This document shows, one piece after another, positions 2,725 to 59,713 of a stretch of 64,000 nt of DNA; the first letter of the stretch is position 1, and the number at the start of each line of letters is the position of its first letter. The notes beneath the pieces were generated by a model. That model had not been told where the DNA came from. It ran no database searches and saw only the letters and a program-made list of their open reading frames with translations. Made by a program: the position numbers and the translations under genes. This stretch comes from Candidatus Omnitrophota bacterium (GTDB lineage Bacteria > Omnitrophota > Gorgyraeia > Zapsychrales > Zapsychraceae). The stretch lies in NCBI GenBank assembly GCA_023247445.1, contig JAHFGL010000002.1:553-64552 (forward strand), written 5' to 3'.

Positions 2725-3441
2725 ATGATTAACTTGATTGACGGTGGTATACAACATTCCAATCTCTTCTTACATATGCCTTTGTTTGATGAGGTTTGTT
2801 ATCAAGGCTTCTTAGAGGGGAAGGTCCGAAAGTATAAAGCCATCCGTGAAGATCAGCCTTGTCAGATTCTCGCCTTAAATGTAATTAGAAAAGATGAAGA
2901 TGTTATTTGGGATGGGTTAGAGGATTTGATCAAGCGCGCGGTCACGCAAGCAATCTCGCTTGTTCATGGCGTTTATGTTTTTGATGTGCTGACAATAGAC
3001 ATTCATAAAGAAATAAAAACCTTTAACATCAATGAACTATCAGAAGTGATTGTTAATCATTCGCGGAAGCTAACCCCAGGATCCACACGATTGGTTAAAT
3101 ATTCAACCCTTTATGGGTTGTTACAGAAGCTTGTACACGAAGACTGGGGGAAAATCGCCTTTAAAACTTCAGTCGAGGTTTTTAAGGATAAGCCGAGTTA
3201 TTTGGACCTATTAATTAAGCAACTTACGAAGAATTTTGAATTTGCGCATGATCCGGGAATTCTTCTTTTAAATGATCTTAGTCAAGAACCGATTTTTGAT
3301 CCCAACGATGCACTTCAGCAGGAACGTTTAAAGAAGATAATTGCGGCCCAAATACCAAATACGATCGAATTTCCACCAGAAGTTTATGTTCAGGATAGGA
3401 AGGGTGTGCGGGAACTGCTTTCAGGATCAGTGATTGCGTAA
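2725..3441 (+). CDS. hypothetical 238-aa protein, translationally coupled to the cyclophilin gene (TAAATG)
   Basis: Long ORF on the same strand, starting one nucleotide after the cyclophilin stop. No recognised domain. Confidence 0.5.
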   Translation: MINLIDGGIQHSNLFLHMPLFDEVCYQGFLEGKVRKYKAIREDQPCQILALNVIRKDEDVIWDGLEDLIKRAVTQAISLVHGVYVFDVLTIDIHKEIKTFNINELSEVIVNHSRKLTPGSTRLVKYSTLYGLLQKLVHEDWGKIAFKTSVEVFKDKPSYLDLLIKQLTKNFEFAHDPGILLLNDLSQEPIFDPNDALQQERLKKIIAAQIPNTIEFPPEVYVQDRKGVRELLSGSVIA

Positions 3442-3626
3442 AGAGGTTGAAATAAAAACAAAAAATATAGTTGACAGGAGAGATAAAATAGGGCATAGTT
3501 ATCACGAAGTAAATGAGGGAAAGAAAGCTTTAAGCCGCAACGGTAGCGAGTATATTTGCCTTGCGGTTTTTTTATTTCCCTTAAAAAATGTTTGCTTTAA
3601 TGTTAGGAAAAGGAGGAGTCAAGAAC

Positions 3627-4601: not shown

Positions 4602-4933
4602 AAGAGATGTCTCCTTTCTAGAAAAAGGATAACATTATGTTATGCATTTGTCAAACATATGTTAAATATATGTTAAAGCTTACAGCCGGCAGTTAACAGC
4701 CTGGTGGCTTAATGTGGAATTAAATTGAGCTCTTCCCGACTTCTTCAATTGATTCCGGGATTAATTCGGAGATAATCAAATAAATCATTGCGCCATCCCC
4801 AAAAGCAATAAAATCGCTGGATTTAAGGAACCGTTTCCTTTGAAATGTTTAATAATCATAATTATCGTCGATAAATGGACAAATTAAGAGACATGTGTGT
4901 TTTAAAAAATAAATATTTTTTGATGTGGAGGCC

Positions 4934-4999: not shown

Positions 5000-5230
5000 A
5001 CGAAAAGGTAAACCATTCTGCTACGTTCAAGCATTTTTATGTGTGAGCTTCGCAGAAATGCTCCTACGAAGCTCACAAACGAAAGTTTTGGAGCGAAGTA
5101 GAGCATTCGAAAGAATGGGGCACAAAGCTATAGGGCCCGAAAAGGCAGCCTAGCTACCGAAGAAATCAGGTGAACAAAATTCGGATGAACACACAAAGCC
5201 CATTCTTTAAAGAGTGGGTTTTTTTATTTG
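5000..5230 (+). promoter_or_regulatory. conserved 5'-leader element, copy A. It has a CGAAAAGGYAAACC box, a hairpin, the box GAGCGWAGTAG...GGGGCA.AAGCTA.AGG, and an AGCCTRGYTACCGAA box, followed by the terminator-like hairpin AAAGCCCATTCTTTAAAGAGTGGGTTTTTTT
   Basis: Homologous copies lie at 48754-48987 and, rearranged, at 33197-33440. Each is upstream of a giant secreted-protein gene, and each is followed by a U-tract hairpin and then the RBS. Confidence 0.6.
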
Positions 5231-5630: not shown

Positions 5631-8489
5631 TTGAATCCTATCCAGGTGAATCCTTCTGTAGTCGTTAACGTTGATTCTTTTAAAATCTCGGAGAATTCGC
5701 AAAAGCTTATTTTTATTGATAGTAATCTTGGGTTACAGAGTGCCAATATGGATGGCCAATATATTGGTAGTATTAATGATACCGATAAAAGAACTAGTGA
5801 AGCCAAATTTACGCTGGCACAGGATCAAGCTATCTTTAAGTCGCTGAATAATCTTTTTGCCGTTAAATTAGAAGGAGGCGAGAATAAAAGATTGATCAAT
5901 AACCATTCTGGGTATGTTGCAGATTTTAAAATAGTTCCTTCTGATGTGCCTCAAACACCTTTTATGTATTTCTGTCTTAATAATCAAATTTTTAGAGAAC
6001 CATTACGGGAACCGTTTCAAATATTAAATGAGTTACAACTTACACCAAACAGCGAAACAGTCGCGTGCCAATTAGATAATTCTATAAAAGATGGAAACAT
6101 TTATTACATGTCCTTGGACCCTGTCGATGGTAGAGGTAATAATTTATATATGTTTTATGGTCCAGGAAGCAGTTTAATTAATGGCTCAGGAAGAGTTGAA
6201 AAGTTTGCGCTGACTCCTGATCTTTCAAGACTTGTTATGTTGGAAGGAAATTTGGCTGATCCAACTAAATTTGATATTTTAGTTCGCCATGTATCAGGTT
6301 CACCTCAATTTAGGCTCAATGCCGCCGCAACTAATATTGTAGAGAAATTTGATGCGTGGGTTGTTACGCCCGATTCAAAGAGAATAATTTATCAAGACAA
6401 TAATGCCTTATATGTAAGAAATCTCGATGATACAGCCGGAACAACTAAGGTCTTCTTATTAGGGAATCTGGCTAGTGTCGCGCAATACGCAAAGATTGTT
6501 GTAACCGCCGATTCATCCAAGATTATTTACGTTAAAGGGACGACGGCAGGGTATAGTCTTTATGCCAAAGGGTTAGATGGTTCGGCAGAACAAAAAATTA
6601 GTGGAGATATTAATATAGAAGGCAGTATTCTAAATTTTCAGGTTTCTTCGGATTCCAAAAGAGCTGTTTATCGAACAAGTAGAAATGTTCTTTATGCGGC
6701 CGAGATAGATGGAAGTTTTCAAACTAAAATCAACGCAGTTGAACATCCTGATATGAGAATTGCATCTGATTTTAGCATTTCTCCTGATTCTAAAAGGGTT
6801 GCTTATACGTCGTATCTTTTAGCGGTCGGCGGTTTTGGAGAAAATCAAACTTATAAAAAATCCATGCATACGGTGACTATTAATTCAGCTACAGTCACAC
6901 AACCTAATGCAGCCCCAGTTTGGCGTACAGTGCAGAATCAAACCAGTATATTTGGGCAGGGCAGTGTAATTTCTATACCGGTGAGTGATGAGGATTCAAG
7001 ATTATCTATAAATATCACCGCTCGTCACCGTACACGAACTGATTTACCGGCTTTGGATAGGATATATTATACGACTGCGAAGGAGTTTCCTTGGCCTGCA
7101 ACAGCCGAAGTTGGAGTATGGGATGTGACGGCAACGGCTGCAGATGCTGGCGGGTTATCCGCAACATCGAATCCTTTTACAGTTACGGTCATACAGCCCA
7201 ACCGCCCACCGGAATTTACAGATTCTACTCCTATTTCTCGAACGGTAGAGGCTGGGAAACCGATGGCTACCATTATCTTGCCGGTTAGTGATCCAGATGG
7301 AGACATTTTAGAATTTTTGGAATATTCTCCAGTAGGAACGCTCCCATCTAATAATTGCTTATTTCCAATATTTAGTAAATCAGCAACGACGCCGGTTCAA
7401 TACAAAGTTGATTGGACACCATCAACTTTGGCTTGTAATCCTGGGAACTACACCTTTAAGGTTCTCATGAGAGACCCAAGTGGGTTACCTGTGACCTCTC
7501 CAGATATTACAATCACGGTCACACAACCTAATCGTGCACCGGAATTTACAGATTCTACTCCTATTTCTCGAACGGTAGAGGCTGGGAAACCGATGGCTAC
7601 CATTATCTTGCCGGTTAGTGATCCAGATGGGGACATCTTAGAATTTGTGGAATATTCTCCAGTAGGAACGGTCCCGTCTAATAATTGCTTATTCCCAGTA
7701 TCTAGCAAATCAGCAACGACGCCGGTTCAATACAAAGTTGATTGGACACCATCAACTTTGGCTTGTAATCCTGGAAACTACGCCTTTAAGGTTCTTATGA
7801 GAGATCCTGGTGGGTTAAGTGTGGCTTCTCCAACCATTACAGTAACTGTAACTAATCCTCCTAAAACACCCGAGGTGACTATTAATGGAACGCTCGTTAA
7901 TGGAACTAAGTTTACAGCCAGCACAGTGACTGTGAGGGGTAGTTTTATTACCTCTACTAAAGTTGCGACTGGTTTTCAAGGGTTTTCCGACAAAATAACA
8001 GAAGGTAGCCCTGATGGTGCGATTATTAAAAATTGGACAAGCCTTCCAGGAAACGCGTCCCAATTCGTAAATATAGCTATTACTGCATCAGGATTTACTT
8101 CTAATCTTGTTTCGGGTAGTAAAACTTATTATCTTTCCGTCAAAGCGCAGGATCGTATGGGGATTTATAGCAGTGTTGGCTCCGCAGCGTTTAAGGTTGA
8201 CGCCGTTAAGCCAAATGCTCCCCTGATTAATACGTTAAGACCTAGTAGTGTTTCTTCAATAACTGCCCAATGGACAATTCCCACGGATATGCCATCAAAT
8301 GGCTCGGGCATTGCCGGGTATGAGTATGAATTGTATAAAGGGTCAACCAGGGCCATACCTCTTACCTCGATAGGTGTTAATCAAAAAATCTTTACAGGGT
8401 TAAGTCGAGGAGCCTACACCTTGAGAGTACGAGCAATCGATAAGGTAGGTAATGGAAGCGATTTTGTAAGTAGAAGTATAACATTGTAA
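5631..8489 (+). CDS. giant secreted protein with PD40 (TolB-like) beta-propeller repeats, 2x tandem Ig/cadherin-like (He_PIG-like) domains and fibronectin-III-like domains
   Basis: Repeated SPDSKRVAY, TPDSKRIIY and SSDSKRAVY motifs; two ~110-aa near-identical PxFTDSTPISRTVEAGKP...DPDGD modules; a C-terminal FN3-like region. The track start 5631 is an alternative start; the true N-terminus is probably at 5276 with a frameshift. Confidence 0.8.
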   Translation: MNPIQVNPSVVVNVDSFKISENSQKLIFIDSNLGLQSANMDGQYIGSINDTDKRTSEAKFTLAQDQAIFKSLNNLFAVKLEGGENKRLINNHSGYVADFKIVPSDVPQTPFMYFCLNNQIFREPLREPFQILNELQLTPNSETVACQLDNSIKDGNIYYMSLDPVDGRGNNLYMFYGPGSSLINGSGRVEKFALTPDLSRLVMLEGNLADPTKFDILVRHVSGSPQFRLNAAATNIVEKFDAWVVTPDSKRIIYQDNNALYVRNLDDTAGTTKVFLLGNLASVAQYAKIVVTADSSKIIYVKGTTAGYSLYAKGLDGSAEQKISGDINIEGSILNFQVSSDSKRAVYRTSRNVLYAAEIDGSFQTKINAVEHPDMRIASDFSISPDSKRVAYTSYLLAVGGFGENQTYKKSMHTVTINSATVTQPNAAPVWRTVQNQTSIFGQGSVISIPVSDEDSRLSINITARHRTRTDLPALDRIYYTTAKEFPWPATAEVGVWDVTATAADAGGLSATSNPFTVTVIQPNRPPEFTDSTPISRTVEAGKPMATIILPVSDPDGDILEFLEYSPVGTLPSNNCLFPIFSKSATTPVQYKVDWTPSTLACNPGNYTFKVLMRDPSGLPVTSPDITITVTQPNRAPEFTDSTPISRTVEAGKPMATIILPVSDPDGDILEFVEYSPVGTVPSNNCLFPVSSKSATTPVQYKVDWTPSTLACNPGNYAFKVLMRDPGGLSVASPTITVTVTNPPKTPEVTINGTLVNGTKFTASTVTVRGSFITSTKVATGFQGFSDKITEGSPDGAIIKNWTSLPGNASQFVNIAITASGFTSNLVSGSKTYYLSVKAQDRMGIYSSVGSAAFKVDAVKPNAPLINTLRPSSVSSITAQWTIPTDMPSNGSGIAGYEYELYKGSTRAIPLTSIGVNQKIFTGLSRGAYTLRVRAIDKVGNGSDFVSRSITL
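7190..7850 (+). repeat. near-identical tandem duplication (2 x 330 bp) inside the giant gene, encoding two He_PIG-like domains
   Basis: GGAATTTACAGATTCTACTCC... occurs at 7211 and 7541 with about 95% nucleotide identity over ~250 bp. This also duplicates antisense ORFs 7067-7306 and 7448-7708. Confidence 0.85.
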
Positions 8490-15793: not shown

Positions 15794-16567
15794 ATGAGTA
15801 AAGTCCCGTTAGCAGTTGTTGTCATTACTAAAAATGAAGAAGCCAATATCGACATGTGCTTAGGAAGTGTGTATGGTTGGGCGGATGAGATTATTGTTGT
15901 TGATGATGAAAGCCGCGACCGCACAGTTGAGCTCAGCAAAAAATATACCAATAAAATTTTTCATCGCAAGATGGATAATGAAGGCAAGCATCGCAATTGG
16001 GCCTACGCGCAGGCGAAGAATGAATGGGTCTTAAGTTTAGATGCCGATGAATATGTCAGCGATCAGTTAAAAGAAGAGATCGCAAAGACGCTGGCTAACA
16101 CAAAATTTCATGCCTTTTCAATTCCACTTCGTAATTACATTGGAACATATTGGGTTCAGCATTCTGGCTGGTATCCCGCTGGGAAGCTGCGACTTTTCAT
16201 GAGAAGCCGGTTTAAATATGAAGAAGTCGAAGTTCATCCACGCGTATTTCTAGAAGGCGACACGGGTCATTTGACCAAAGATATTGTTCATAAAGGCTAT
16301 CCAGACTTTGAACATTTCTTGGGAAGTTTAAATCGGCAGACCACACTTGAAGCACGAAAATGGATTCAAACCGGACGCAAGATGAGTTTAGGTCGAGCGA
16401 TCTGGCGCACGATTGATCGTTTTCCACGATCATTCATCGGTAAGAAAGGTTACAAAGACGGATTTGTTGGTTTTATGATTGCTTTTTTTGCGTCGTTGTA
16501 TCAAATCATGAGCTACGCCAAATATTGGGAAATGAAAAATTTACATCAGGACAATATAAAACACTAA
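15794..16567 (+). CDS. family-2 glycosyltransferase (WaaE/KdtX-like LPS core GT)
   Basis: VVVITKNEEANIDMCLGSV...DEIIVVDDESRDRT DxD region. Confidence 0.8.
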   Translation: MSKVPLAVVVITKNEEANIDMCLGSVYGWADEIIVVDDESRDRTVELSKKYTNKIFHRKMDNEGKHRNWAYAQAKNEWVLSLDADEYVSDQLKEEIAKTLANTKFHAFSIPLRNYIGTYWVQHSGWYPAGKLRLFMRSRFKYEEVEVHPRVFLEGDTGHLTKDIVHKGYPDFEHFLGSLNRQTTLEARKWIQTGRKMSLGRAIWRTIDRFPRSFIGKKGYKDGFVGFMIAFFASLYQIMSYAKYWEMKNLHQDNIKH

Positions 16568-16679
16568 ACACAAAACTCTAAATAAACTTAAAATCCAAAT
16601 GCTAAAGTTTTAAACTTTTAGTTTTGTATTTTGAGTTTATTTAGAGTTTAGAGTTTTGGATTTAGGGTTTTCAAAAAAG
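16568..16679 (+). repeat. intergenic bipartite AT-rich element (a G-free ~39-nt half with AAATCCAAA, then a C-poor half with TTTGGATTT and AGTTTATTTAGAGTTT), forming nested hairpins
   Basis: ACAAAACTCTAAATAAACT pairs with AGTTTATTTAGAGTTT and AAAATCCAAAT pairs with TTTTGGATTT. The same half-site style is seen in the elements at 27766 and 59020. Confidence 0.5.
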
Positions 16680-25131: not shown

Positions 25132-25256
25132 TGTAATAAGATTTCTATAATCTTCCAACATAAAATATCAATCAAATATTCTCTAAAATCTTTAAAAAAA
25201 TAAACATCAATTTTTTCTTATGATATACTTTAAATGAAATTATAGGGAGGAGAAGT

Positions 25257-25457
25257 ATGATAAAGATTAAAGAAAAGTATGTGAAAGATTCTAAAGGGCA
25301 TCCGATCAGTGTTGTTCTTGATATTAAACAATATCGAAAACTTTTAAAACAAGCTGAAGAATTAGAAGCGATTCGTGCGTATGACGTGGCTAAAGCTTCC
25401 GGGGATGAAGTGATCCCTTTTGATCAAGCGATTAAAGAAATCCAACGAGAACGTTGA
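25257..25457 (+). CDS. type II antitoxin (Phd/YefM-like)
   Basis: 66 aa, RBS GGGAGGAG, overlaps the downstream toxin gene (ATGA). Confidence 0.65.
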   Translation: MIKIKEKYVKDSKGHPISVVLDIKQYRKLLKQAEELEAIRAYDVAKASGDEVIPFDQAIKEIQRER

Positions 25458-26748: not shown

Positions 26749-27765
26749 ATGCCAGAATTACGTAAAGATCCGGTTGTTGGACGTTGGGTGATTATTGCAA
26801 CCGAACGTGCCCGTCGGCCAGGAAATTTTGTCGACACGACCTACATTCGTCCTCAGGGCGGCGCAAAAGATTGTCAGTTTTGCCATCCATCCGAAAAAAT
26901 TATTTACTCAGCCAAGAAATCTGCGAGTTCATCTAACTGGGATGTTTGCGTCACAGATTTTAAAGAATCCTTTTTAAACATGAATGAGCCAATTGCGCAC
27001 AAACGCCATGGTCTTTATGAAGTCGTTAATGGAGTTGGAACACATGAGGTTGTGATCGAGACCAGCACCCACGTTGCAAACATGGCTGATTTAGGTTTGG
27101 AACAGATCCGTCTTATCTTTGAAACCTATGCTGGGCGGATTACGGAGTTAGAAAAAAATCCGCAGCTGCAATATGTTCTTCCCTATAAAAATTATAGTCA
27201 AATGGCGGGTAGTCGCATGATCGGCCACACACGTTCGCATATTATTGCGACCCCGGTTAATCCTGTTCGCGTTAATGAAAAGTTGACGGGCGCCAAAGAA
27301 TATTTTGATACCAAAAAGCGCTGCATTTATTGTGATCTCATCAAACAAGATTTGGAGGAAAAGTCCCGCATTGTCGTTGAAACCGAACATTTCTTAGCGG
27401 TAATTCCTTTTGCCGCTCGATTTCTCTTTGAAACATGGATTTTACCGAAGAAACATCACTGCGATTATGCCAGTGGTGTTAAAGGTGTTGAAGGCGATTT
27501 GGCGCTTATGATGAAAACGTTATTGACCAAATTTAAAGTTGGACTTGATGATCCCGCGTATAACTATGTCATTCACACCGCACCGTTTCGTCGAATGCAG
27601 TTAAATACGAATCGTTGGGCAACGATCGAACAGGATTTTCATTGGCATATGGAGCTCATGCCACAGTTGACCTTAATGGCCGGATTTGAAAAGGGAACTG
27701 GGTTTTATATTTGTGCCGTGCCGCCGGAGCAGATGGCGGAATATTTGAGAGAAATAATAATTTAA
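26749..27765 (+). CDS. GalT-like HIT-family nucleotidyltransferase, paralog 1. The active-site stretch reads HTRSH instead of HxHxQ
   Basis: Zn motif CQFCHPSEK and N-terminal RKDPVVGRWVIIA; the position of the catalytic HxHxQ reads GHTRSHIIATP. Confidence 0.7.
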   Translation: MPELRKDPVVGRWVIIATERARRPGNFVDTTYIRPQGGAKDCQFCHPSEKIIYSAKKSASSSNWDVCVTDFKESFLNMNEPIAHKRHGLYEVVNGVGTHEVVIETSTHVANMADLGLEQIRLIFETYAGRITELEKNPQLQYVLPYKNYSQMAGSRMIGHTRSHIIATPVNPVRVNEKLTGAKEYFDTKKRCIYCDLIKQDLEEKSRIVVETEHFLAVIPFAARFLFETWILPKKHHCDYASGVKGVEGDLALMMKTLLTKFKVGLDDPAYNYVIHTAPFRRMQLNTNRWATIEQDFHWHMELMPQLTLMAGFEKGTGFYICAVPPEQMAEYLREIII

Positions 27766-27910
27766 ATACCAATAAACAAATTCCAAATACCAAACAATAT
27801 ACAAACTTCAATTAACAAATTACAAAAATTTTTTTATGTTTGGAAATTGTGATTTGTTTGTAATTTGGTGCTTAGAATTTGGGATTTTATTTTAGAAAAG
27901 GAAATTATAA
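27766..27910 (+). repeat. bipartite intergenic element: a 72-nt G-free half (AAATTCCAAATACCAAACAATATACAAA...) followed by a C-poor half (GTTTGGAAATTG...TGTAATTTGG...TTTGGGATTTT)
   Basis: Read directly. Homologous to 59020-59197, with a ~90% identical 28-mer and the shared 3' end GTAATTTGG..TTTGGGATTTT. Confidence 0.6.
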
Positions 27911-28915
27911 GTGACCGAATTCAGACGTGATCCTATCGTAGGCCAGTGGACGCTCGTTCACACGAGTAATCCCTTGGGCCCCAAAGATTTTCAAAAAGAA
28001 GAACGATTTGTGCGCGCGCCGGATCTTTGCCAATTTTGTCCGGGCAAAGAACGGATGACACCGTCAGAGGTGGACAGCGTACGTTTAAATGGATCGTTAC
28101 CGAATGCCTTTGGCTGGCAGGTTCGCGTTGTGCCCAATAAATTTCCAGCGCTTAAGATCGAAGGAAATTTGGATGCGCGTCACAGTGGTCTACTAGAATT
28201 ATCCAACGGCATCGGCGCCCACGAGGTTTTGATCGAAACACCAGATCACCACAAACATCTGGCGGATCTTTCCGTCGAAGAAGTTGGGCACGTTATAAAG
28301 AAATATCACAGTCGTTTAGTTGATTTGGCCGGCGATAAGCGCTTTAAATACATTATTATTTTTAAGAATTTTGGCGAGTCAGCGGGCGCTACCGTTGAGC
28401 ACGCGCACAGCCAGATCATTGCGCTTCCCATGGTTCCCAAATATGTTTTGGAAGAACTTGAAGGCGCTCAGCAATATTTCAATGAATGCAAATGCTGCGT
28501 CTTCTGCGACATGATCGAACAGGAATACAAAGACAAAGAACGAATCGTCACTGAGAATGAAGATTTCTTGGTGTTCACTCCGTTTGTACCGCGATACCCT
28601 TTTGAATGTTGGATCATTCCTAAAAAACACACCAGCGAATTTGCCACGATTTCAGAGAGCAGCCAACATCACTTGGCCGCGATTTTGAAAGAAACGCTGC
28701 TACGATTAAAAATTTGTTTATCGAACCCGTCGTACAATTATTATCTGCACATTGCACCCGTTAATTATGAAAAACAAGAAAGTTTTCATTGGCATATTGA
28801 AATCGTGCCGAAGCTCACCAATGTTACCGGTTTTGAATGGGGAACCGGATTTTTTGTCGTTAAAACTCCGCCGCACGTCGCCGCCAAACATCTACGAGAA
28901 GTTTCGCTTTCATAA
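27911..28915 (+). CDS. galT: GalT-like HIT-family nucleotidyltransferase (galactose-1-phosphate uridylyltransferase-like), paralog 2, with canonical HxHxQ
   Basis: CQFCPGKER zinc motif and ATVEHAHSQIIALP (HxHxQ); GTG start. Confidence 0.75.
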   Translation: MTEFRRDPIVGQWTLVHTSNPLGPKDFQKEERFVRAPDLCQFCPGKERMTPSEVDSVRLNGSLPNAFGWQVRVVPNKFPALKIEGNLDARHSGLLELSNGIGAHEVLIETPDHHKHLADLSVEEVGHVIKKYHSRLVDLAGDKRFKYIIIFKNFGESAGATVEHAHSQIIALPMVPKYVLEELEGAQQYFNECKCCVFCDMIEQEYKDKERIVTENEDFLVFTPFVPRYPFECWIIPKKHTSEFATISESSQHHLAAILKETLLRLKICLSNPSYNYYLHIAPVNYEKQESFHWHIEIVPKLTNVTGFEWGTGFFVVKTPPHVAAKHLREVSLS

Positions 28916-33196: not shown

Positions 33197-33440
33197 TTAT
33201 TAGAAATATTTATCGATCTTTTAATAATTATTTTTGACGAAAAGGCAAATTGTCAGTAATGACAAGACGCAAAACCAAAGGGTCCTTTTAAAGAGGATAG
33301 CCTAGTTACCGAATCAAGATATGAAAAGTTTAGAATACAATATAAACCTATTTTTTAATTATATGAGCTGAGCTTATATTTTTAAGGAGTAGGTTTTTTT
33401 ATTGGCAGGAGGGGCTAATTAGAATCAAAGCATTAAAAAA
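33197..33440 (+). promoter_or_regulatory. conserved 5'-leader element, copy B (rearranged/divergent): CTTAATGTAGTGT, GACGAAAAGGCAAA, GATAGCCTAGTTACCGAATC, then a U-tract hairpin before the RBS
   Basis: Shares the boxes of copies A and C; lies upstream of the NHL giant gene. Confidence 0.5.
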
Positions 33441-33458
33441 GTGTTTAAGGTGGGGAAA

Positions 33459-36400
33459 ATGAGAAAAAATTTCGCAACTAAGTTACAAAGAATCTTAAGT
33501 ATGAATGTGGCGGTATTTATTTTATTAATTTATTCAGGGGTTTCTTCCTCTGTAAGCACATTTAACTTACGTCATGTTGGCTCGACCCCGATCGAAATTG
33601 TTGTCAGTTGGGATCAGGTCTCTAATGCAGAGAAATACATCTTACAGCGAAGCACCAGTTCCTCATTTAATCCTGTGGATGCTGAATTTCAGTTTTCCAA
33701 AACAATTTTAGCTTATGGAGACACGGGCCATAGTAATCCAGCTGAGCCTATGCGGTTTAAGGAAAGGGAAAAATCACTCTTATTATTGTCTCCTGAGGTG
33801 GATTATTATTATCGGGTTTTCGCTTATGATCTTAATAATAATCTATTAGCGGAAAGTACGTCTGTATTTGCTAAGCCAGACGCTGGATCCCTAACAGATG
33901 CTTCAGGGCAGAGACCTGTTATTGAAGGAGATCTTCGAGCTGATATTGTCCTTGGGCAACCTAATTTTCTTGAGTTTAATGAGCTTCAACCAAATGCCAA
34001 TGGTGGCGTCAATATCGGAGGAGTTGTCGTTGATAAATCAATTCCTGGGCAAGATCGTTTATATATACTTGATGCAAATCATAATCGTGTTTTAGGTATG
34101 CCTTCAATCAATCCGGATTCTGGTGCTACTTCAGCTACGATTGTTTTAGGGCAACCAAATTTTGAATCGGCAGCATGTAATGGCGATATGACCTACGACG
34201 GTTATCCTACTAAAAGAAATCCAAAAGAAGATACTTTATGTTTTGCTGAGCCGGGCGAAAAGAGTCCTAGAGAAGTCGTGGTTTGGTCAATCATGAGTGT
34301 TGATTTGGATGGTAATTTGTATGTCGCAGACTTCTTAAATCAACGTGTTTTAAAGTATGTAAAGCCATTTGAAACAAATATGGTTGCAGATGAGGTTTGG
34401 GGGCAAGGAGAAGGTGTGGATAAGTTTACATCCAATACTTGTAATAAAGAAGGGCTCAGTGCTTCGTCTCTTTGTTTGCTTAAAGGATTTCCTATGGATC
34501 ATATGACGGCCAGTGTTCATATCGACCGAAATGGTAATTTATGGGTTGTGGATTTAGGTAATCGTAGAGTTTTAAGATACCCAAAAATTGGCAATGAAAT
34601 TTCTAAGATAGCGGATTTGGTTTTGGGTCAGGATAATTTTACGACCATCAAAGAAAACATCCCTGTTGATAGTCTTAAGTATTTGTATTACCCAAAATTT
34701 GTTGTCAGCGATGAGTCATCAGGGGACATTTATGTAGGCGATCAAGGAGATGAAACTCATCCTACGAGGATTTTAAAGTATGCTGCAGAAAATATTCCAT
34801 TAGCAGGACAAGGTGGAGAGAGTGCATTAACTGCTCAAGAGATTATATTTGGAAATACTTCTACGTTACCAAATCAGACAAACAATCATTGGCGAATTAC
34901 TAGCTTATCCTATGATTCGACAAGGCATGGCCTGTGGATTCAGGCAGAGGGGAAGAATTATCTTTATAATTTTTTAAATAATAGTGTAACTAAAATTGTT
35001 CTCTCTGGATATGACCCCCGGGGAGTGGATGTTGATTCTAGGGGAAATCTTATCACTGTAGGATCCTATGATGACCTTCGTGATGTCAATTTATTTTTGG
35101 CAACGGATATTGATAACGTAAATGTAACTGCTCAGAACCCTCTCACTTCAGATAATAGAAAGAATATTTTTAGAACTGGCCCTTCATTAGTGATGGATCA
35201 CGGGTTAAGTGGTTTAAAGAATGTTACTGGGTTGACTATTGCTGGGAATCAGTTGGTAATTAGCGATTTTGGTCGACTTCTTTTTTGGAATGATTACCGT
35301 ATTCTTTCTACAGGTCAATCAGCCGATGGGGAATGGGCTTATGGTTATGATAAGAATATGGCTTCTCCAAGAGTCGATGCGCAAAATAGATTGTGGTTTT
35401 CAAGTCTTTTGCCACTTAATTCGGATGTTCCCACTCAAGGTGAAAATTGTTCAGAAGAGTCTTGCCTGCATGCGGTGTTGCTTCCTCTGGCACCCGACTC
35501 ATCTTTAGTTAAGAGTTTTCCAATAAATAAAGTTGAATTACGAGCTAAAAGAAAATTTATGACTGGCATTGAATATCAGGATTTTATACGGTTTTATCCA
35601 TCAACGGATCGAAGTGGAAATGGGGTTTTATGGATTGCTACACACAATAAAGGTGTATTTCGTTTAGTAAATATTAATAAAGAAAAGGATGCGAGTCGTG
35701 GTCCATATGTTGATGTTGTCTTGGGTCGGGCAAATAAGTTAGATCAGGTCTGTTCTTCTGAGGCAGGTTATAATCCAACCGCCAGTACTATCTGTAACGC
35801 TAATGATGTCCGTGTTGATTCGGAAGGGAATGTATGGGTTGTCGATAAACCTTACGGAGAGGATGAGGAATTTACTAGATTACTTATGTTTTCATCTATT
35901 TCGATTCCTGATTCTGATGATATTCGCCATGAAACAGTGTTTGGCATTCCAGCTTCTAAGGTCTATGGGACCGGAGGTGATTTTCTGCGCCGAACGAATC
36001 CAGAATTAGATGTTGATGCGAGCCCTTTTGTTCCATCTATTTCGACAGAAAAAAGATCAATGATATTAGATACTCATTATGATGACTCAATCTTTCCTTT
36101 GGTTTATTTAGATTATGATAATGTCAATATCCCGCAATTTTCTCTAGGAGACGCAACTATGTTTGGCATTGATTCTACCTTTGATCCCGAGGGTAATTTT
36201 TATATGGGGGACAAGGTTTGGAATCGTGTGCTTATTTATAAAAAGCCGTTACTAAACGTTACCAAATATAATCATCCTCCTCAATTAAATATGCCCAATC
36301 AGATTCCTGTTATTGAAGGGGTAAATATTTCATTTCAAGTAACGGGTTATGATTTAGATGGAGACATATTTACTGTTTCTGCAAACGGATTGCCTTTAGG

Positions 36401-37367
36401 GGCGCATTTTGACCCTGTAACTCGACGATTTGACTGGACGCCCACATTGGAGCAAGCTGGCACTTATCAAATTACCTTTCAGGCCTCTGACACAAAAGGG
36501 GGCATTTCCACAAACAGCATTTCGATCACCGTAATAGATAGTGTGCTTTTATCGCCAAGTAATTTGTCGGCTAGGACATTGAATACACCGGTTGTTGGAT
36601 TAACTTGGGTTGATAATTCTAATTGTGAAAATTCTTTTAGTATTGAGCAAAGCGTGGATGGAATTAATTATCAAGTGGTGGGAAGTGCCTCTGCCAATAC
36701 TACCTCTTATAATGTACAACCGAGCGTAATGAACCAAACTCTTTATTATCGTGTTCGAGCTATGCGAGGCAGCATGGGATCAGACCCTTCTGATGCGATT
36801 GCTGTTAATGATCCTCTCTATGTAAAAGTAGTCGAAAAAGGAACAGGGACTCCTTTGGCGTTTATTCAGGTATCTTTGCGGGGAGTAAGAGCAAGTGATG
36901 GGAAATTAATTAAAGTTCAAGGACTGACGGACGCTGATGGCTATGTTGTTTTAAGAAACGTAACTTCTCCGAAATTCAATTATCGAGTAAGGGGTAAAGC
37001 GATAAGACTCGAAGCGAAGTATCAAATCAAGACCATGACCGTTACAGATATCAATCACCTTATTTCTATGGAAGGAGCATTAAGTGGCGTTGGTCAGGGT
37101 TCTCAAACCGGTCAATTTACTTTAGATGGATATGTTACTAGCTCGGATGAAACTTTTGCGATTGCCGACGCGGAAATTGCATTGATACAACTAGATGGGG
37201 CCAAGATTCGTTTAACGGTCAGAAGCGGTAGTGATGGATATTTTGCATTTAATAATTTGAAAAATGGTCGGTATAGGGTTGTGGTTACTAAAAAGGGTTA
37301 TCGATTTAATGAGCAGACAGATATTATTAATAATGAAAACTTCGAGATGAATTTTATAGCGAAATAA
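33459..37367 (+). CDS. giant secreted NHL-repeat beta-propeller protein with He_PIG Ig-like domain, FN3 and C-terminal CarboxypepD_reg-like domains
   Basis: GNLYVADFLNQRVLKY and GNLWVVDLGNRRVLRY NHL blades; the HPPQLNMPNQIPVIEG...DLDGD Ig-like module; C-terminal beta-sandwich repeats. The start is taken at ATG 33459 (RBS AGGTGGGG). Confidence 0.8.
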   Translation: MRKNFATKLQRILSMNVAVFILLIYSGVSSSVSTFNLRHVGSTPIEIVVSWDQVSNAEKYILQRSTSSSFNPVDAEFQFSKTILAYGDTGHSNPAEPMRFKEREKSLLLLSPEVDYYYRVFAYDLNNNLLAESTSVFAKPDAGSLTDASGQRPVIEGDLRADIVLGQPNFLEFNELQPNANGGVNIGGVVVDKSIPGQDRLYILDANHNRVLGMPSINPDSGATSATIVLGQPNFESAACNGDMTYDGYPTKRNPKEDTLCFAEPGEKSPREVVVWSIMSVDLDGNLYVADFLNQRVLKYVKPFETNMVADEVWGQGEGVDKFTSNTCNKEGLSASSLCLLKGFPMDHMTASVHIDRNGNLWVVDLGNRRVLRYPKIGNEISKIADLVLGQDNFTTIKENIPVDSLKYLYYPKFVVSDESSGDIYVGDQGDETHPTRILKYAAENIPLAGQGGESALTAQEIIFGNTSTLPNQTNNHWRITSLSYDSTRHGLWIQAEGKNYLYNFLNNSVTKIVLSGYDPRGVDVDSRGNLITVGSYDDLRDVNLFLATDIDNVNVTAQNPLTSDNRKNIFRTGPSLVMDHGLSGLKNVTGLTIAGNQLVISDFGRLLFWNDYRILSTGQSADGEWAYGYDKNMASPRVDAQNRLWFSSLLPLNSDVPTQGENCSEESCLHAVLLPLAPDSSLVKSFPINKVELRAKRKFMTGIEYQDFIRFYPSTDRSGNGVLWIATHNKGVFRLVNINKEKDASRGPYVDVVLGRANKLDQVCSSEAGYNPTASTICNANDVRVDSEGNVWVVDKPYGEDEEFTRLLMFSSISIPDSDDIRHETVFGIPASKVYGTGGDFLRRTNPELDVDASPFVPSISTEKRSMILDTHYDDSIFPLVYLDYDNVNIPQFSLGDATMFGIDSTFDPEGNFYMGDKVWNRVLIYKKPLLNVTKYNHPPQLNMPNQIPVIEGVNISFQVTGYDLDGDIFTVSANGLPLGAHFDPVTRRFDWTPTLEQAGTYQITFQASDTKGGISTNSISITVIDSVLLSPSNLSARTLNTPVVGLTWVDNSNCENSFSIEQSVDGINYQVVGSASANTTSYNVQPSVMNQTLYYRVRAMRGSMGSDPSDAIAVNDPLYVKVVEKGTGTPLAFIQVSLRGVRASDGKLIKVQGLTDADGYVVLRNVTSPKFNYRVRGKAIRLEAKYQIKTMTVTDINHLISMEGALSGVGQGSQTGQFTLDGYVTSSDETFAIADAEIALIQLDGAKIRLTVRSGSDGYFAFNNLKNGRYRVVVTKKGYRFNEQTDIINNENFEMNFIAK

Positions 37368-55121: not shown

Positions 55122-56819
55122 ATGGCCATCAAAACAAAATTTCCTATCGGTCAGCTTCTCATCGAGAAGAAGATCATTACCCCCGAACAATTAGAGATAG
55201 CGCTTAAGAAACAAAAAGAAACCAACGAGCCGCTGGGCGTAACCCTCATTAAATTAGGTTTTATTGAAGAAGAAACGATTTTTTTGCCCGTTTTAGCCGG
55301 ACAAATGGGTGTTGATTATGTGAATTTGAAAGATATTGAAATCCCTCCCGAGGTCTTAAGCAAAATTCCCGCCAAGTTTGCCAGTCATTATAAAATTATG
55401 CCGTTTGCCTTTAGGAGTAATACGATTTCGATTGCAACGGCCGTTCCCATCGACATTCATCTGCTGGATGAAATTGGATTGGTTGTTAATTATCCACTGC
55501 AATCTGTTTTAGCGAGCGAAAAAGATATATTGGAAGCCATCCGAAAATATTATGGAGTTGGGGCGGAGACGATTGAAAAAATGATGGGCTCGGTGCAGAA
55601 GTCGAATCAACAGGAAACAGAAATTGCGGAGATTGACGAAACAGGTTCCGAGGCCTCGATTAGCAAATTTTTAAATCAAATTCTTCTGCAGGCTTATCGT
55701 GATCGCGCCAGTGATATCCATATTGAACCCTTTGAAGATAATTTGCAAATTCGTTATCGAGTTGATGGCATCCTTTATGATGCCAAAGTTCCTCCTAACA
55801 TTAAACATTTTAAAGATGAAATTAATTCTCGGATTAAAATCTTATCAAATCTTAACATCGCCGAGAAACGGTTGCCTCAGGACGGCCGTTTTAAAGTACG
55901 AGTTAAGGATGTTGATATTGATCTTCGCGTTTCATTTTTGCCAACGCCGTATGGAGAGAGTGTTGTCTTACGCGTTTTGAATTCGACCCGCTTATTTAGT
56001 TTTGAAGAATTAGGACTGATCGATTATGAACGCAAAATTCTTGAAGAGTTAGTTAAGAAGCCTCACGGAATTATTTTTTTAACCGGGCCAACCGGAAGTG
56101 GAAAGACAACGACACTTTATTCGTGTCTTTCTCAAGTGAACACAGAAGATAGAAAAATTATCACAATTGAAGATCCGATTGAATATCAACTTAAAGGCAT
56201 TACGCAAATTCAAACTAATCCCAGAATTGGATTAACCTTTGCCCATGGACTACGTTCGATGCTTCGTCATGATCCTGATATTATGATGGTCGGAGAAGTT
56301 CGGGATCGTGAAACAGCGGAAATTGCGATTCAAGTGGCTTTAACTGGGCATTTAATTTTTTCAACACTGCATACCAATGACGCGGCCAGCGGCGTTACGC
56401 GTTTGCTCGATATGGGGGTTGAGCCATTTCTGGTGACGAGCACCATCGAATGTTTTATTGCTCAACGATTGATCCGCATGTTGTGTTCGAAATGTAAACA
56501 GCCAACGAAATTAAATGATCAGCTTCTTAAAGATTTTGAAGGTCAGGTTGAAATTCCTAAAGATATGACGATTTATGAAGGCAAAGGTTGCGAGTCCTGT
56601 AAAATGACCGGTTATATTGGTCGAGAAGCCATTTATGAGTTTTTGCTAATGACAGAACCGATTCGACAACTGATTATGCAACGCGCGACCGTTAATCAGA
56701 TTAAAGAAAAAGCGATCGAGCAAGGAATGAAAACACTGCGGCAGTCGGGATGGGATAAGGTTGTGCATGGATTAACGACGCCGGAAGAAGTTGTCAGGGT
56801 CACTAAAGAAGAAACTTAG
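55122..56819 (+). CDS. gspE: type II secretion / type IV pilus assembly ATPase (GspE/PilB family) with N-terminal T2SSE_N domain
   Basis: Walker A GPTGSGKTTT, the Asp box, Walker B, and the Cys4 cluster CSKCKQ...CESCKMTG. Confidence 0.9.
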   Translation: MAIKTKFPIGQLLIEKKIITPEQLEIALKKQKETNEPLGVTLIKLGFIEEETIFLPVLAGQMGVDYVNLKDIEIPPEVLSKIPAKFASHYKIMPFAFRSNTISIATAVPIDIHLLDEIGLVVNYPLQSVLASEKDILEAIRKYYGVGAETIEKMMGSVQKSNQQETEIAEIDETGSEASISKFLNQILLQAYRDRASDIHIEPFEDNLQIRYRVDGILYDAKVPPNIKHFKDEINSRIKILSNLNIAEKRLPQDGRFKVRVKDVDIDLRVSFLPTPYGESVVLRVLNSTRLFSFEELGLIDYERKILEELVKKPHGIIFLTGPTGSGKTTTLYSCLSQVNTEDRKIITIEDPIEYQLKGITQIQTNPRIGLTFAHGLRSMLRHDPDIMMVGEVRDRETAEIAIQVALTGHLIFSTLHTNDAASGVTRLLDMGVEPFLVTSTIECFIAQRLIRMLCSKCKQPTKLNDQLLKDFEGQVEIPKDMTIYEGKGCESCKMTGYIGREAIYEFLLMTEPIRQLIMQRATVNQIKEKAIEQGMKTLRQSGWDKVVHGLTTPEEVVRVTKEET

Positions 56820-56868
56820 TAATCGTATTTCGTATTTAGTACATCGTACTTCGCTGAGGATTGATGAG

Positions 56869-57228
56869 ATGGAGAAGATTAAAAATTTTAAAGAATTGAG
56901 GATATGGCAGAAAGGGATAGAAATTGTTAAAGATGTTTATTCGATGACCAAAGATTTTCCCAAAGAAGAATTGTATGGTTTAACAAGTCAAATGAGACGC
57001 TCTGCAATTTCAATACCATCTAATATTGCCGAAGGATTTAAAAGATTTCATGATAAAGAGTATAAGCAGTTTTTGCATATCACTTTAGGATCTGCTGCTG
57101 AATTAGAAACACAGATTATTATCTCTAAGGAACTTAATTTTATAGACCAAGAGAAGTTAGATAACATTCTAGAAAAATTAGATCATTTGGCCAAAATGAT
57201 TTCTTCTCTTTTAAATAAAATACAATAA
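56869..57228 (+). CDS. four-helix-bundle protein (23S rRNA intervening-sequence protein family, TIGR02436-like)
   Basis: MEKIKNFKELRIWQKGIEIVKDVY...ELYGLTSQMRRSAISIPSNIAEGF...GSAAELETQ, the canonical 4HB signature; ~119 aa from ATG 56869. Confidence 0.8.
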   Translation: MEKIKNFKELRIWQKGIEIVKDVYSMTKDFPKEELYGLTSQMRRSAISIPSNIAEGFKRFHDKEYKQFLHITLGSAAELETQIIISKELNFIDQEKLDNILEKLDHLAKMISSLLNKIQ

Positions 57229-57264
57229 CGATGTACGAAGTACGAATGACGAAATACGAAGTAT

Positions 57265-58503
57265 ATGCCAAGATTCCACTACAAAGCCAAAGAAGGTCCA
57301 ACCAAAATTATTGATGGAACCATCGAGGCTGATACGCTCGATGGGGCGATCAGTAAAATTATTGGTCTTAGGTTAACACCCCTTGATGTCGTTTTAGAAA
57401 ATCAACAGGAAGTAGAGAAGAAGGCCAAGGCAACAGCGCTTCTTAAAACGGACTTTAACTTTTTTAAGCGCGTTGGATTAAAAGATGTCGTTTTATTTAC
57501 GCGACAGATGAGTGATTTAATTGAGGCCTCAGTACCGCTACTGCGTTCAATACAAATCGTCAGCAATCAGACACAAAATATTTATTTTAAAGGGTTGATC
57601 CAAAATATGGCGACCTTTGTCAAAGATGGTGGATCATTTTCTGAAAGTTTATCCAAACATCCGCAGATTTTTTCTAACCTTTATGTCAATATGGTTAAGA
57701 CAGGCGAAGTCGGTGGACAGTTGGAACTTGTTTTAAAGCGTCTGGCCATTTATTTGGAGAAAGAACATGAGACGCGTTCTAAAGTTCGCTCGAGTTTGGC
57801 CTATCCTGCATTGATTCTCGTTGTCGGGGTTATCACTATTTTTGTGCTTTTGACCTTTGTTATTCCGCGACTGACCGTTATGTTTGAAGATCTTAATCAA
57901 TCTTTGCCCACACCAACCCTGATTCTTATTCAGATGAGTAATGTCTTTGCTCAGTATTGGTGGCTGATGATTATTGTTGTGGTTTTGGTTGCGGTGTATT
58001 TTAAAAAATGGAGTAATTCGGAAAATGGTCGACTCTGGTTAGATTCATCGTTATTAAAAATTCCTTTATTAGGGAATTTTATTCGCATTGTTGAAGTGGG
58101 CCGGTTAGCGAGGACTTTGGGAACATTGCTAGAAAGTGGTGTAACGATGACTAAGGCGTTAAAATCGGTTGCTGGACTGATTGATAATGTTGTCTTACGG
58201 GAGGAAGTTAGAAGAATGTCAGAAGAGGTGACGCAAGGATCTAGTTTAAGAAATGCCTTGAAACAATGTTCGTATTTTCCTGAAATGGCTGTTAATATGA
58301 TTTCCGTCGGTGAAGAGACGGGACGATTGGATCACAGCCTTTATAAAGTCGCTGAGACCTTTGAACGTGAGGCTGATGAAACGGTAAAAAGTATCGTGTC
58401 CTTGGTGGGGCCACTGGTTTTAGTTGTTGTTATTTCTATTGTTGGTTTTGTTGTTATTTCAATGTTACTTCCTATTTTTCAAATGAATTTAATTGTTCAA
58501 TAG
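57265..58503 (+). CDS. gspF: type II secretion inner-membrane platform protein (GspF/PilC family)
   Basis: Two GspF repeats, 3 TMs, N-terminal MPRFHYKAKEG...GL.PLDV. Confidence 0.85.
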   Translation: MPRFHYKAKEGPTKIIDGTIEADTLDGAISKIIGLRLTPLDVVLENQQEVEKKAKATALLKTDFNFFKRVGLKDVVLFTRQMSDLIEASVPLLRSIQIVSNQTQNIYFKGLIQNMATFVKDGGSFSESLSKHPQIFSNLYVNMVKTGEVGGQLELVLKRLAIYLEKEHETRSKVRSSLAYPALILVVGVITIFVLLTFVIPRLTVMFEDLNQSLPTPTLILIQMSNVFAQYWWLMIIVVVLVAVYFKKWSNSENGRLWLDSSLLKIPLLGNFIRIVEVGRLARTLGTLLESGVTMTKALKSVAGLIDNVVLREEVRRMSEEVTQGSSLRNALKQCSYFPEMAVNMISVGEETGRLDHSLYKVAETFEREADETVKSIVSLVGPLVLVVVISIVGFVVISMLLPIFQMNLIVQ

Positions 58504-58575: not shown

Positions 58576-59019
58576 ATGAATTTCAAAACAAAGAATGCAT
58601 TTACATTAATTGAAATCATGTTGGTGGTTGTGATCATTGGTATTTTGGCAGCGATGATTGTTCCTAATATCGCTGGCCGAGGCGAGCAGGCCCGTAAATC
58701 CACCGCCAGGACGGATATTGAAGCTAATCTTCCATCAGCCCTGGATCTTTATGAAATGGATAATGGCCGTTTTCCAACAACGGAACAGGGACTTAAGGCC
58801 TTGATTCAAAAACCATCAACCACGCCTGAGGCAACCAACTGGAGTGGTCCTTATTTGAAAAAGAAAAAAATGCCTCTGGATCCTTGGGGACATGAATATA
58901 TTTATAGTTCTCCCGGCGCGCATAACACGGATGATTACGATTTATCGTCCTATGGTCAAGATGGAATTGAAAGTAAGGATGATGTGACGAATTGGGGGAT
59001 TGATACTTCCAAGAAATAA
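58576..59019 (+). CDS. gspG: major pseudopilin GspG
   Basis: Prepilin signal KNAFTLIEIMLVVVIIGILAA; GRFPTTEQGLKAL; DPWG..Y.Y..PG. Confidence 0.9.
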   Translation: MNFKTKNAFTLIEIMLVVVIIGILAAMIVPNIAGRGEQARKSTARTDIEANLPSALDLYEMDNGRFPTTEQGLKALIQKPSTTPEATNWSGPYLKKKKMPLDPWGHEYIYSSPGAHNTDDYDLSSYGQDGIESKDDVTNWGIDTSKK

Positions 59020-59197
59020 ATTCCAATATACAAATCTTAAACACCAAACAATACAATAAATTCCAATTACCAAATAATATACAAATCCCAATGGCTAAGA
59101 TTTACATTTAGTTTTGTATTTTGTTAATTGGAATTTGTTTGGTATTTGTGATTTTGGATTTGTATATTGCCTGTAATTTGGGATTTGGGATTTTAAA
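59020..59197 (+). repeat. bipartite intergenic element (a ~72-nt G-free half, then a ~100-nt C-poor half), homologous to 27766-27910
   Basis: AAATTCCAATTACCAAATAATATACAAATCCCAAT ... TTGGAATTTGTTTGGTATTTGTGATTTTGGATTTGTATATT...TGTAATTTGGGATTTGGGATTTT. Confidence 0.6.
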
Positions 59198-59692: not shown

Positions 59693-59713
59693 AAGGGTCA
59701 TGGGTCAAGGGTC

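Follow-up and report, generated by a model that had tools for sequence, protein, structure and literature searches.

Palindromic heptamer-repeat elements in three operon spacers

The stretch analysed here, hereafter the window, comprises 64,000 nucleotides of contig JAHFGL010000002.1 from a Candidatus Omnitrophota bacterium. Three of its intergenic spacers, which separate two galT paralogs, gspG from gspH, and a GT2 glycosyltransferase gene from a HAD/GmhB-like phosphatase gene (neighbours identified by Pfam), hold elements of 119–178 nt without an open reading frame (ORF), that is, three copies per 64 kb. All three are members of a real and very widespread palindromic family and are homologous to each other. 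The elements, to which no strand is assigned, and the sequence adjoining the first of them are the following:

27762–27890, no strand: e27k, an ORF-less palindromic heptamer-repeat element between galT paralog 1 (26749–27765) and paralog 2 (27911–28915)
about 27762–27826, 27827–27836 and 27837–27890: the 5′ arm, A/T loop and 3′ arm of e27k
27891–27910, + strand: tail between e27k and galT2, with a Shine-Dalgarno-like AAGGAA (27898–27903) outside the hairpin, followed by the GTG start of galT2 (from the sequence and the ORF table)
59020–59197, no strand: e59k, which occupies the entire spacer between gspG (58576–59019) and gspH (59198–59692)
16556–16674, no strand: e16k, between the GT2 glycosyltransferase gene (15794–16567) and the HAD/GmhB-like phosphatase gene (ATG at 16680)

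The original prediction, made from the letters of the window, had described a G-free half followed by a C-poor half, and this composition is real. In a window of 39.5% G+C (G = 0.219, C = 0.176), the longest G-free runs lie at 27752–27837 (86 nt), 25141–25221 (81 nt), 59014–59092 (79 nt) and 16551–16600 (50 nt); at this frequency of G, the chance of an 86-nt run is 0.781^86, or about 6e-10 per start and about 4e-5 per window. Directly after the G-free halves of the elements come C-free runs, at 27824–27870 and 27872–27914 (separated by one C, at 27871), at 59106–59169 (64 nt) and at 16616–16671 (56 nt), and the lone C of e27k sits in GGTGCTT, the complement of the conserved family heptamer AAGCACC. 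Both halves owe their composition to the fact that they are the two complementary arms of a heptamer hairpin. A scan for the composition itself also returned 25141–25290, where an 81-nt G-free stretch is followed by a 62-nt C-free one. This candidate was rejected as a family member, being a T-rich divergent promoter region with no match to the family model R1 described below. Because divergent regions of ribosome-binding sites (RBSs) and promoters naturally yield the same pattern, the compositional scan was dropped as a detector.

In all three copies the stop codon of the upstream gene lies at or inside the first heptamers of the element: the TAA of galT1 (27763–27765) falls within the first heptamer of e27k, and that of the GT2 gene (16565–16567) within e16k. 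The refined boundaries of e59k are 59023–59171 plus the terminal heptamers CTGTAATTTGGGATTTGGGATTTT up to 59193, which form a small second hairpin (59171–59203) with the gspH start region. The most palindromic copy, e16k, is a diverged subtype with the units AAACACT and TTTAGAG. Similarity among the window copies is patchy but real, with 28 nt at 93% identity between e27k and e59k and 17 of 17 matching nucleotides between e59k and e16k. An independent ENA contig (L001) has the identical e27k, which rules out an artefact of assembly.

The elements share one layout, in which a 5′ arm made of a degenerate heptamer run, (NNCCAAA)n, is followed by a loop and a complementary 3′ arm, (TTTGGNN)n. Identity at lag 7 reaches 0.46–0.57 in all six arms (z 1.8–4.0 each), with a combined z of 6.7 at lag 7 and 4.4 at lag 14. 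Period-7 arrays called by Tandem Repeats Finder (TRF) at 16559–16582, 16640–16656, 27764–27794 and 59176–59193 are degenerate, with 66–100% matches, and the periodicity spans the whole arms. Across the family alignment, CAA or TTG is invariant at each seventh column, and variant heptamers follow a conserved order, AAATTCC, AAGCACC and AAATAAATTCC in one arm and TTGGAATTTATTTGG, GGTGCTT and GGAATTT in the other.

The arms of e16k, 52 nt each, are 79% complementary and spaced by 1 nt; as RNA the element has a minimum free energy (MFE) of −37.2 kcal/mol (z −6.2; −6.6 with DNA parameters). The full e59k reaches −51.8 kcal/mol (z −5.3), with a long hairpin stem at 59024–59169, and the fold of e27k is weaker (z −1.8 on the + strand, −3.7 on the − strand). 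Folding with DNA parameters agrees with the RNA picture of single nested hairpins, and the family consensus fold, too, is a plain nested hairpin. The complementary sub-blocks had originally been read as an A-B...A′-B′ arrangement giving crossing (pseudoknot-like) or alternative pairings; a pseudoknot is not supported, because degenerate heptamer arrays pair in many slipped registers and so produce apparent crossing pairings, whereas the MFE folds and the family consensus are nested. Nor does the shared orientation of the copies, as originally noted, carry information, since the reverse complement of a G-free half followed by a C-free half again has that layout, and R1 scores both strands of the window elements about equally.

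A widespread family and its genomic placement

The first family pattern was a ~20-nt degenerate motif, AAYAAATTCCAAWWWMCAAA, scanned over one genome per species, and the loci studied are among the matches listed, which do not include the source genome; many of these matches show the architecture of the window elements together with the extra shared blocks CCAAGCACCAAAT, TTGGAATTTATTTGG and TTTGTAATTTGGAATTTT. In viral contigs this pattern gave mostly single chance matches. With a stricter 21-nt motif in metagenomes, 113 of the 120 matches listed have arm matches. A covariance model, R1, was trained on six foreign copies, three from a Gammaproteobacteria-labelled metagenome-assembled genome (MAG), two from Omnitrophota MAGs and one from an unclassified MAG. 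In the window it recovers exactly e27k (80 bits, E 6e-15), e59k (61 bits, E 8e-11) and e16k (52 bits, E 1e-8), the next match having an E-value of 0.58, which bears out the proposed homology of the three copies. Over 120 genome loci R1 finds about 60 distinct further copies. By their labels, the MAGs with R1 matches belong to Omnitrophota, Patescibacteria, Acidobacteriota, Aminicenantes, Desulfobacterota, Brocadiales, Thermodesulfovibrionia, Dehalococcoidia, Verrucomicrobiota, Bacteroidota and Stahlbacteria, and three viral contigs carry R1 copies as well.

Searches of Rfam, on the window at gathering score and on seven foreign loci to E 1, placed no family on the elements, apart from a chance match to a plant miRNA precursor (E 0.59), and a consensus-like copy had no blastn match in plasmid and phage collections, to which low-complexity filtering may contribute. 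Neither the sequence motifs of the family nor a link between heptamers and the protein family PF05635, to which we return below, appears in any paper found in the open-access literature, and the palindromic heptamer family has apparently not yet been described. The superficial resemblance of imperfect 120–190-nt palindromes between co-directional genes to integron attC sites or ERIC raises the question of whether the elements are attC sites, other known palindromic repeats (REP/BIME, ERIC, Correia) or ordinary terminators. This identification is effectively refuted: 0 of 58 copies have the RYYYAAC ... GTTRRRY core sites of attC, the copies adjoin core genes of operons (of the gsp, galT, ribosomal-protein and acc kinds) rather than promoterless cassettes, no Rfam family matches and the blastn search of plasmid and phage collections found nothing, and a scan of the three elements found no terminator-like site with a G+C-rich stem and T-run, while other copies lie inside a ribosomal-protein operon. 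Promoter-like matches in the elements were at chance level.

Another origin that would not involve mobility is expansion in situ, with heptamer slippage and intrastrand template switching building each array from a small hairpin at its own locus and likeness across genomes arising by convergence. Heptameric simple sequence repeats (SSRs) are indeed over-represented in many bacteria and vary in length among close relatives, and Xanthomonas has GGGAATC arrays commonly arranged as inverted pairs (PMC4692102). Equivalent places can hold a wide variety of heptamer units, the window and its relative L200 carry different arrays at the same junction downstream of gspH, and no target-site duplication (TSD) was detected. 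Such a process would hardly preserve the order of the variant heptamers (AAGCACC, AAATAAATTCC, inner CCAATGTCCAAAACGAAG), which is kept across MAGs of different phyla, nor would it let a model built from foreign copies score the window copies at E 1e-8 to 6e-15. It is likewise at odds with ~92% identical copies with unrelated flanks in one genome and with an associated ORF that is 70–78% identical across phyla. We consider it quite improbable as the source of the family, and slippage probably shapes the arms after insertion.

The gspG–gspH junction is polymorphic for the insertion. The two genes overlap or sit 4 nt apart in the relatives L002, L003 and L200 (GspG 68–73% identical), and are separated by a spacer of 152 nt in the closest relative (GspG 74% identity). 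L200 has a copy of the family, which we denote by its CCAAAT core, downstream of its gspH, where the window carries unrelated arrays:

59695–59747, + strand: (GGGTCAT)x3.1 followed by (GCCTTGC)x3.7, two adjacent arrays where gspH meets the next gene; part of the general heptamer-array phenomenon, outside the CCAAAT family (TRF)

The second of these overlaps the predicted start of ORF 59714–60151; should this start be correct, the array would code for a portion of a pseudopilin leader of unusual length.

Dispersal is also seen within a genome: a single Omnitrophota MAG has, on separate contigs, two copies that share ~92% identity and are set in unrelated flanks. Copies stand in both orientations relative to genes, since the asymmetric AAGCACC block is in the 5′ arm of some and in the 3′ arm of others, including e27k. 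Among the three roles originally considered, namely an intercistronic mRNA stabiliser or processing element, a translational control site and a MITE-like repeat (MITE, miniature inverted-repeat transposable element), the last fits best, the family being dispersed with unrelated flanks, absent from orthologous sites and present in both orientations. The idea of a translational control site bound by protein at CA-rich sequence finds no support.

Nested and chimeric heptamer arrays exist among the loci. At L149 (1400–1700), a single CCAAAT-type 5′ arm is nested within inverted arrays of another heptamer, of the TTCGAAC type, which suggests that elements insert into one another. On a Bacteroidales chromosome (L155, 7250–8000), tandem CCAAAT-type 5′ arms with a period of ~166 nt are each followed by (CCCCTTGT)n instead of the complementary arm. 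A hairpin of (GATACTC/G)n and its complement, with the same architecture and an unrelated unit, lies at L121 (1007–1143), ~330 nt from a CCAAAT copy, and folds with −62 kcal/mol over the 217-nt stretch 967–1183. In a Brocadia MAG (L102), a group II intron at 140–2118 (Rfam D1–D4, domain V) lies ~280 nt upstream of a family copy at 2398–2558.

As for gene context, 33 of 58 copies lie between tandem genes, 10 between convergent and 3 between divergent genes (at least one of the latter miscalled), and 12 at contig edges; about half have their start within ~12 nt of the upstream stop codon. The original claim of an intra-operonic location thus holds for the window copies, all of which lie between co-directional genes and end 5–27 nt before the next start, but not strictly for the family. 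Copies are tolerated inside essential operons. A Gammaproteobacteria-labelled MAG (L171) has three in its ribosomal-protein operon, at L22–S3, L24–L5 and L6–L18 (608–749, 3537–3678 and 5666–5803), and an Omnitrophota MAG has an ORF-less CCAAAT hairpin in the accB–accC spacer (L111, 5574–5692). In a phage contig (L033), copies at 1279–1478, 3305–3504 and 4622–4820, each ~200 nt long with 43% G+C and near-perfect (AAATCCC)n stems, flank an SU10-like major capsid gene, and another phage contig has a copy between structural genes (L006, 2112–2254).

This placement could be taken to mean that the copies are cis-regulatory RNA hairpins, each selected at its own locus and acting in stabilisation, processing or translational control and setting the ratio of upstream to downstream product, with mobility incidental. 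Copies follow genes expected to be highly expressed (those for GspG, the phage major capsid protein, ribosomal proteins, GroEL and an outer-membrane barrel protein); the folds are stable, the elements keep clear of divergent promoter regions and in about half of the cases begin within ~12 nt of the upstream stop, and the window copies finish just ahead of the next RBS. Yet orthologous gspG–gspH junctions do without the element, copies also follow unremarkable genes (galT and those for a glycosyltransferase, a signal peptidase, an acylphosphatase and a response regulator), and both orientations occur, the sense strand being neither more stable nor better in G-U pairing and the stems showing no covariation; moreover, the same arms elsewhere enclose a selfish-looking ORF. 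As a primary explanation we find local selection unlikely, while a cis-acting RNA role is compatible with the elements being insertions, as a secondary, exapted effect.

PF05635 cassettes and the proposed origin of the spacers

A larger element with an ORF interrupts the same gsp gene cluster of the window:

56823–57263, + strand: ORF-bearing relative, with a PF05635 gene (56869–57228) between gspE (55122–56819) and gspF (57265–58503)

Its ORF encodes 119 aa of a 23S_rRNA_IVP/bAvd-like four-helix bundle (PF05635, Pfam E 6e-41), the closest PDB entry being 2GSC, XCC0516 (E 1.5e-22). Inverted arrays bracket the gene, (TCGTAYT)n at 56823–56853 and (ARTACGA)n at 57228–57263 (TRF), and the fold pairs both; their heptamers differ from those of the CCAAAT family. 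In the relative L003, gspE directly adjoins gspF with no cassette.

Elsewhere the CCAAAT arms themselves enclose such ORFs. In a Patescibacteria locus (L136) the family 5′ arm is joined directly to the ATG of a PF05635 ORF, and a complete hairpin comes after the ORF; L212–L221 are built likewise. phmmer with the window PF05635 protein missed the diverged homologue in L136, for which a small hidden Markov model (HMM) was required. ORFs homologous to that of L136 are 70–78% identical in MAGs labelled Patescibacteria, Desulfobacterales, Scalindua and Brocadiaceae. The full order of family 5′ arm, PF05635 ORF and family 3′ arm is present in L223 and L224 (Desulfobacterales), L222 (Scalindua) and the metagenome contigs L256 and L281; in L223, the arm HMM matches upstream of the ORF at E 1.7e-11 and downstream at E 4e-8. 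Given that family arms enclose PF05635 ORFs in these loci, the three window elements are the ORF-less form of a larger, gene-carrying element. One identical PF05635 protein (P0125, from L212–L221) occurs in 53 blocks of the assembly collection (JGI and ENA samples, one labelled groundwater metagenome), and in the 24 of its contigs that were read (10 shown) it is always flanked by family arms and lies between tandem paralogs with a Laminin_G_3 domain.

The association of PF05635 genes with heptamers is broader than the CCAAAT family. Flanks of 24 PF05635 genes have a lag-7 identity of 0.47, compared with 0.29 for control ORFs (p 8e-9); the duplex energy between upstream and downstream flanks is weakly significant (p 0.015) and confounded by G+C, which makes the lag-7 measure the cleaner of the two. 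On cyanobacterial and Gemmatimonadota plasmids, PF05635 homologues encoding the four-helix bundle (4HB) stand between co-directional genes (cas6-4HB-cas4 and cmr2-4HB-cmr3, both on cyanobacterial plasmids, and TraM-4HB), flanked by heptamer arrays that are usually inverted (GGGAACA/TGTTCCC, AAAAGGG/CCCTTTT, AGGTGAC/GTCACCT and GGAGATA/TATCTCC). A GGGAATC array of Xanthomonas campestris, located 6 nt from bccP, extends over the start of the PF05635 gene XCC0516 (XCC0516–XCC0517; PMC4692102 supplement).

Taken together, these observations make it probable, in our judgement, that the three spacers all consist of ORF-less, MITE-like copies of an insertion element that is palindromic, dispersed and spread horizontally and that resembles the intervening sequences (IVSs) of rRNA genes. 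Such an element would land in a short spacer just past a stop codon, in either orientation, and both orientations would give the same RNA because the element is self-complementary. Its 5′ arm carries TAA stops and is, being nearly G-free, almost devoid of start codons and Shine-Dalgarno-like sites, and its 3′ arm is U/G-rich with GGA motifs; 5′ halves average 1.2 start codons and 0.24 GGA, and 3′ halves 8.8 and 3.0. Having no terminator features, the element would be read through and co-transcribed as part of the operon. The imperfect stem of 45–70 bp would probably be cut by RNase III, as in rRNA IVSs, so that the two cistrons would come apart, with half-stems remaining on their ends. For the neighbours the effect might be neutral, or it might uncouple their levels, for example those of the major pseudopilin GspG and the minor GspH, or of the capsid gene and its neighbours. 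A role of the elements in mRNA processing or stabilisation is plausible.

Several points weigh against this interpretation. No genome near enough was found to show an empty site at the nucleotide level, and no transposase or other known mobility enzyme was seen associated with the element. A search for TSDs over 58 copies gave a longest shared flank k-mer averaging 4.29 compared with 4.21 in shuffled pairings, although short TSDs could escape, the ends being uncertain by a few nucleotides. Covariation was not found in the family stems, whose pairs are essentially invariant and so uninformative, and neither stability (18 of 31, p 0.15) nor G-U content favours the sense over the antisense RNA among 31 operon-embedded copies. 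There is only one PF05635 gene in ~850 kb of genome loci, so that most copies are not beside such a gene, and the RNase III step is borrowed from rRNA IVSs by analogy. As to the data themselves, most copies came from loci chosen by sequence pattern, so that the frequencies given here are not unbiased; taxon names are the depositors' labels of MAGs, whose breadth could be exaggerated by bin contamination; low-complexity, AT-rich sequence inflates identities; and the E-values of R1 come from a shortened calibration.

With neither covariation nor a sense-strand bias, the data fail to separate RNA-level from DNA-level constraint. The elements might act as DNA, with arrays of sites to which the PF05635 pentamer, or else some nucleoid or regulatory protein, would bind, or by extruding as cruciforms or single-stranded DNA hairpins with effects on replication or recombination. 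The two strands are equally stable, conservation is of sequence rather than pairing, heptamer arrays co-occur with PF05635 genes, and heptamer repeats change promoter behaviour in Nostoc reporter assays (bioRxiv 10.1101/2022.06.06.494920). However, protein binding to the arrays is hypothetical, the elements occupy transcribed spacers and shun promoter regions, PF05635 genes are absent from the surroundings of most copies, and the strict inverted arrangement would be left unexplained. We regard a DNA-level function as very improbable.

There is also a bolder proposal, one that we put forward as speculation and think unlikely: heptamer arrays at large (the cyanobacterial short tandemly repeated repetitive sequences (STRRs), GGGAATC of Xanthomonas and the CCAAAT family) would be arms or remnants of one IVS-like selfish class, whose cargo, an Avd-like PF05635 protein, would recognise the arrays as RNA or single-stranded DNA and help them to spread or persist. 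It might do so through recruitment of a reverse transcriptase, the part that Avd plays in diversity-generating retroelements. ORF-less hairpins would be non-autonomous passengers, and essential operons would tolerate them owing to their removal from the mRNA by RNase III.

If the spacers are indeed insertions of this kind, a very widespread family of non-coding elements is being ignored by present annotation pipelines, and its presence would account for unusually long spacers in compact genomes such as those of Omnitrophota and bacteria of the candidate phyla radiation (CPR). It would also tie together two separate puzzles, the over-representation of heptamers in some genomes and the purpose of the multicopy 23S rRNA intervening-sequence protein family, and would offer a testable hypothesis, that of RNase III excision from mRNA combined with a protein that recognises heptamer arrays. 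Finally, it would caution against assigning PF05635 genes to the operons into which they are inserted, for example those of cas genes.

Other features of the window include two cyclic di-GMP-I riboswitches (RF01051), which are its only Rfam matches, at 5087–5161 (44.8 bits) and 33234–33313 (63.5 bits), upstream of the large ORFs 5631–8489 and 33441–37367, respectively. The first of these ORFs, of 952 aa, contains an internal domain duplication, a 330-bp unit present twice at 7177–7832 with 91% identity. A scan of the window for tRNA and tmRNA genes found none.

Comparison with known systems

ERIC, Correia/NEMIS and RPE are small, non-coding, whole-length imperfect palindromes that are multicopy, inserted in either orientation and co-transcribed, and they are reported to alter mRNA processing or stability. 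Like MITEs in general, the elements described here are short, non-coding and dispersed, with inverted-repeat arms. They depart from MITEs in that no TSD was detected over 58 copies and in that larger relatives with the same arms encode a PF05635 protein, with no transposase seen; they differ from ERIC, Correia and RPE in the 7-nt periodicity of their arms and in a host range that spans many phyla rather than one genus or family.

Heptameric SSRs offer a second comparison. GGGAATC in Xanthomonas (70–75 of the arrays as inverted pairs), GGGGATT in Nostoc, the cyanobacterial STRRs and TAACTGA in Beggiatoaceae are of unknown function (PMC4692102, PMC4679880, bioRxiv 10.1101/2022.06.06.494920). In common with the CCAAAT family, they are intergenic tandem heptamers, often within operons or just ahead of start codons, and their inverted pairs can form stem-loops. 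Whereas those SSRs are near-perfect, made of one unit and specific to a genus, the present arrays consist of degenerate variant units in a fixed order, with defined ends and homology across phyla. Heptameric SSRs have, moreover, been described as SSRs or G-quadruplex candidates and not as discrete elements.

PF05635 genes situated between cas genes (cmr3-IVP-cmr2) have been read as candidate cas-associated functions (PMC3936711). As in the window cassette, a small four-helix-bundle gene is wedged there between co-directional operon genes, and because PF05635 genes among cas genes are flanked by inverted heptamer arrays, our data suggest that they are insertions rather than operon members.

The IVSs of 23S and 16S rRNA, with or without an S23p/PF05635 ORF, are known from Leptospira, Coxiella, Salmonella and CPR bacteria and are regarded as selfish, sporadic and horizontally acquired (PMC4990558, PMC11270868). 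RNase III cuts the stems of ORF-bearing IVSs out of the RNA, and the rRNA fragments on either side come to differ in level (PMC4990558; PMC11270868). With these IVSs the present family shares a long inverted-repeat stem, an optional PF05635 ORF in the loop and the coexistence of ORF-bearing and ORF-less forms, as well as a site in a transcribed region, dependence on host transcription and a sporadic distribution. It differs in that the window copies lie between protein-coding operon genes (there is no rRNA in the window), in that RNase III excision, shown for IVSs, is here assumed by analogy, and in that its arms are heptamer arrays conserved across phyla, a feature that no open-access IVS paper we found reports. 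Lying outside rRNA, the elements are not strict members of the IVS class; by analogy, the window copies may be said to relate to the PF05635-bearing members of their family as a MITE does to its parent, or as an ORF-less rRNA IVS does to an ORF-bearing one.

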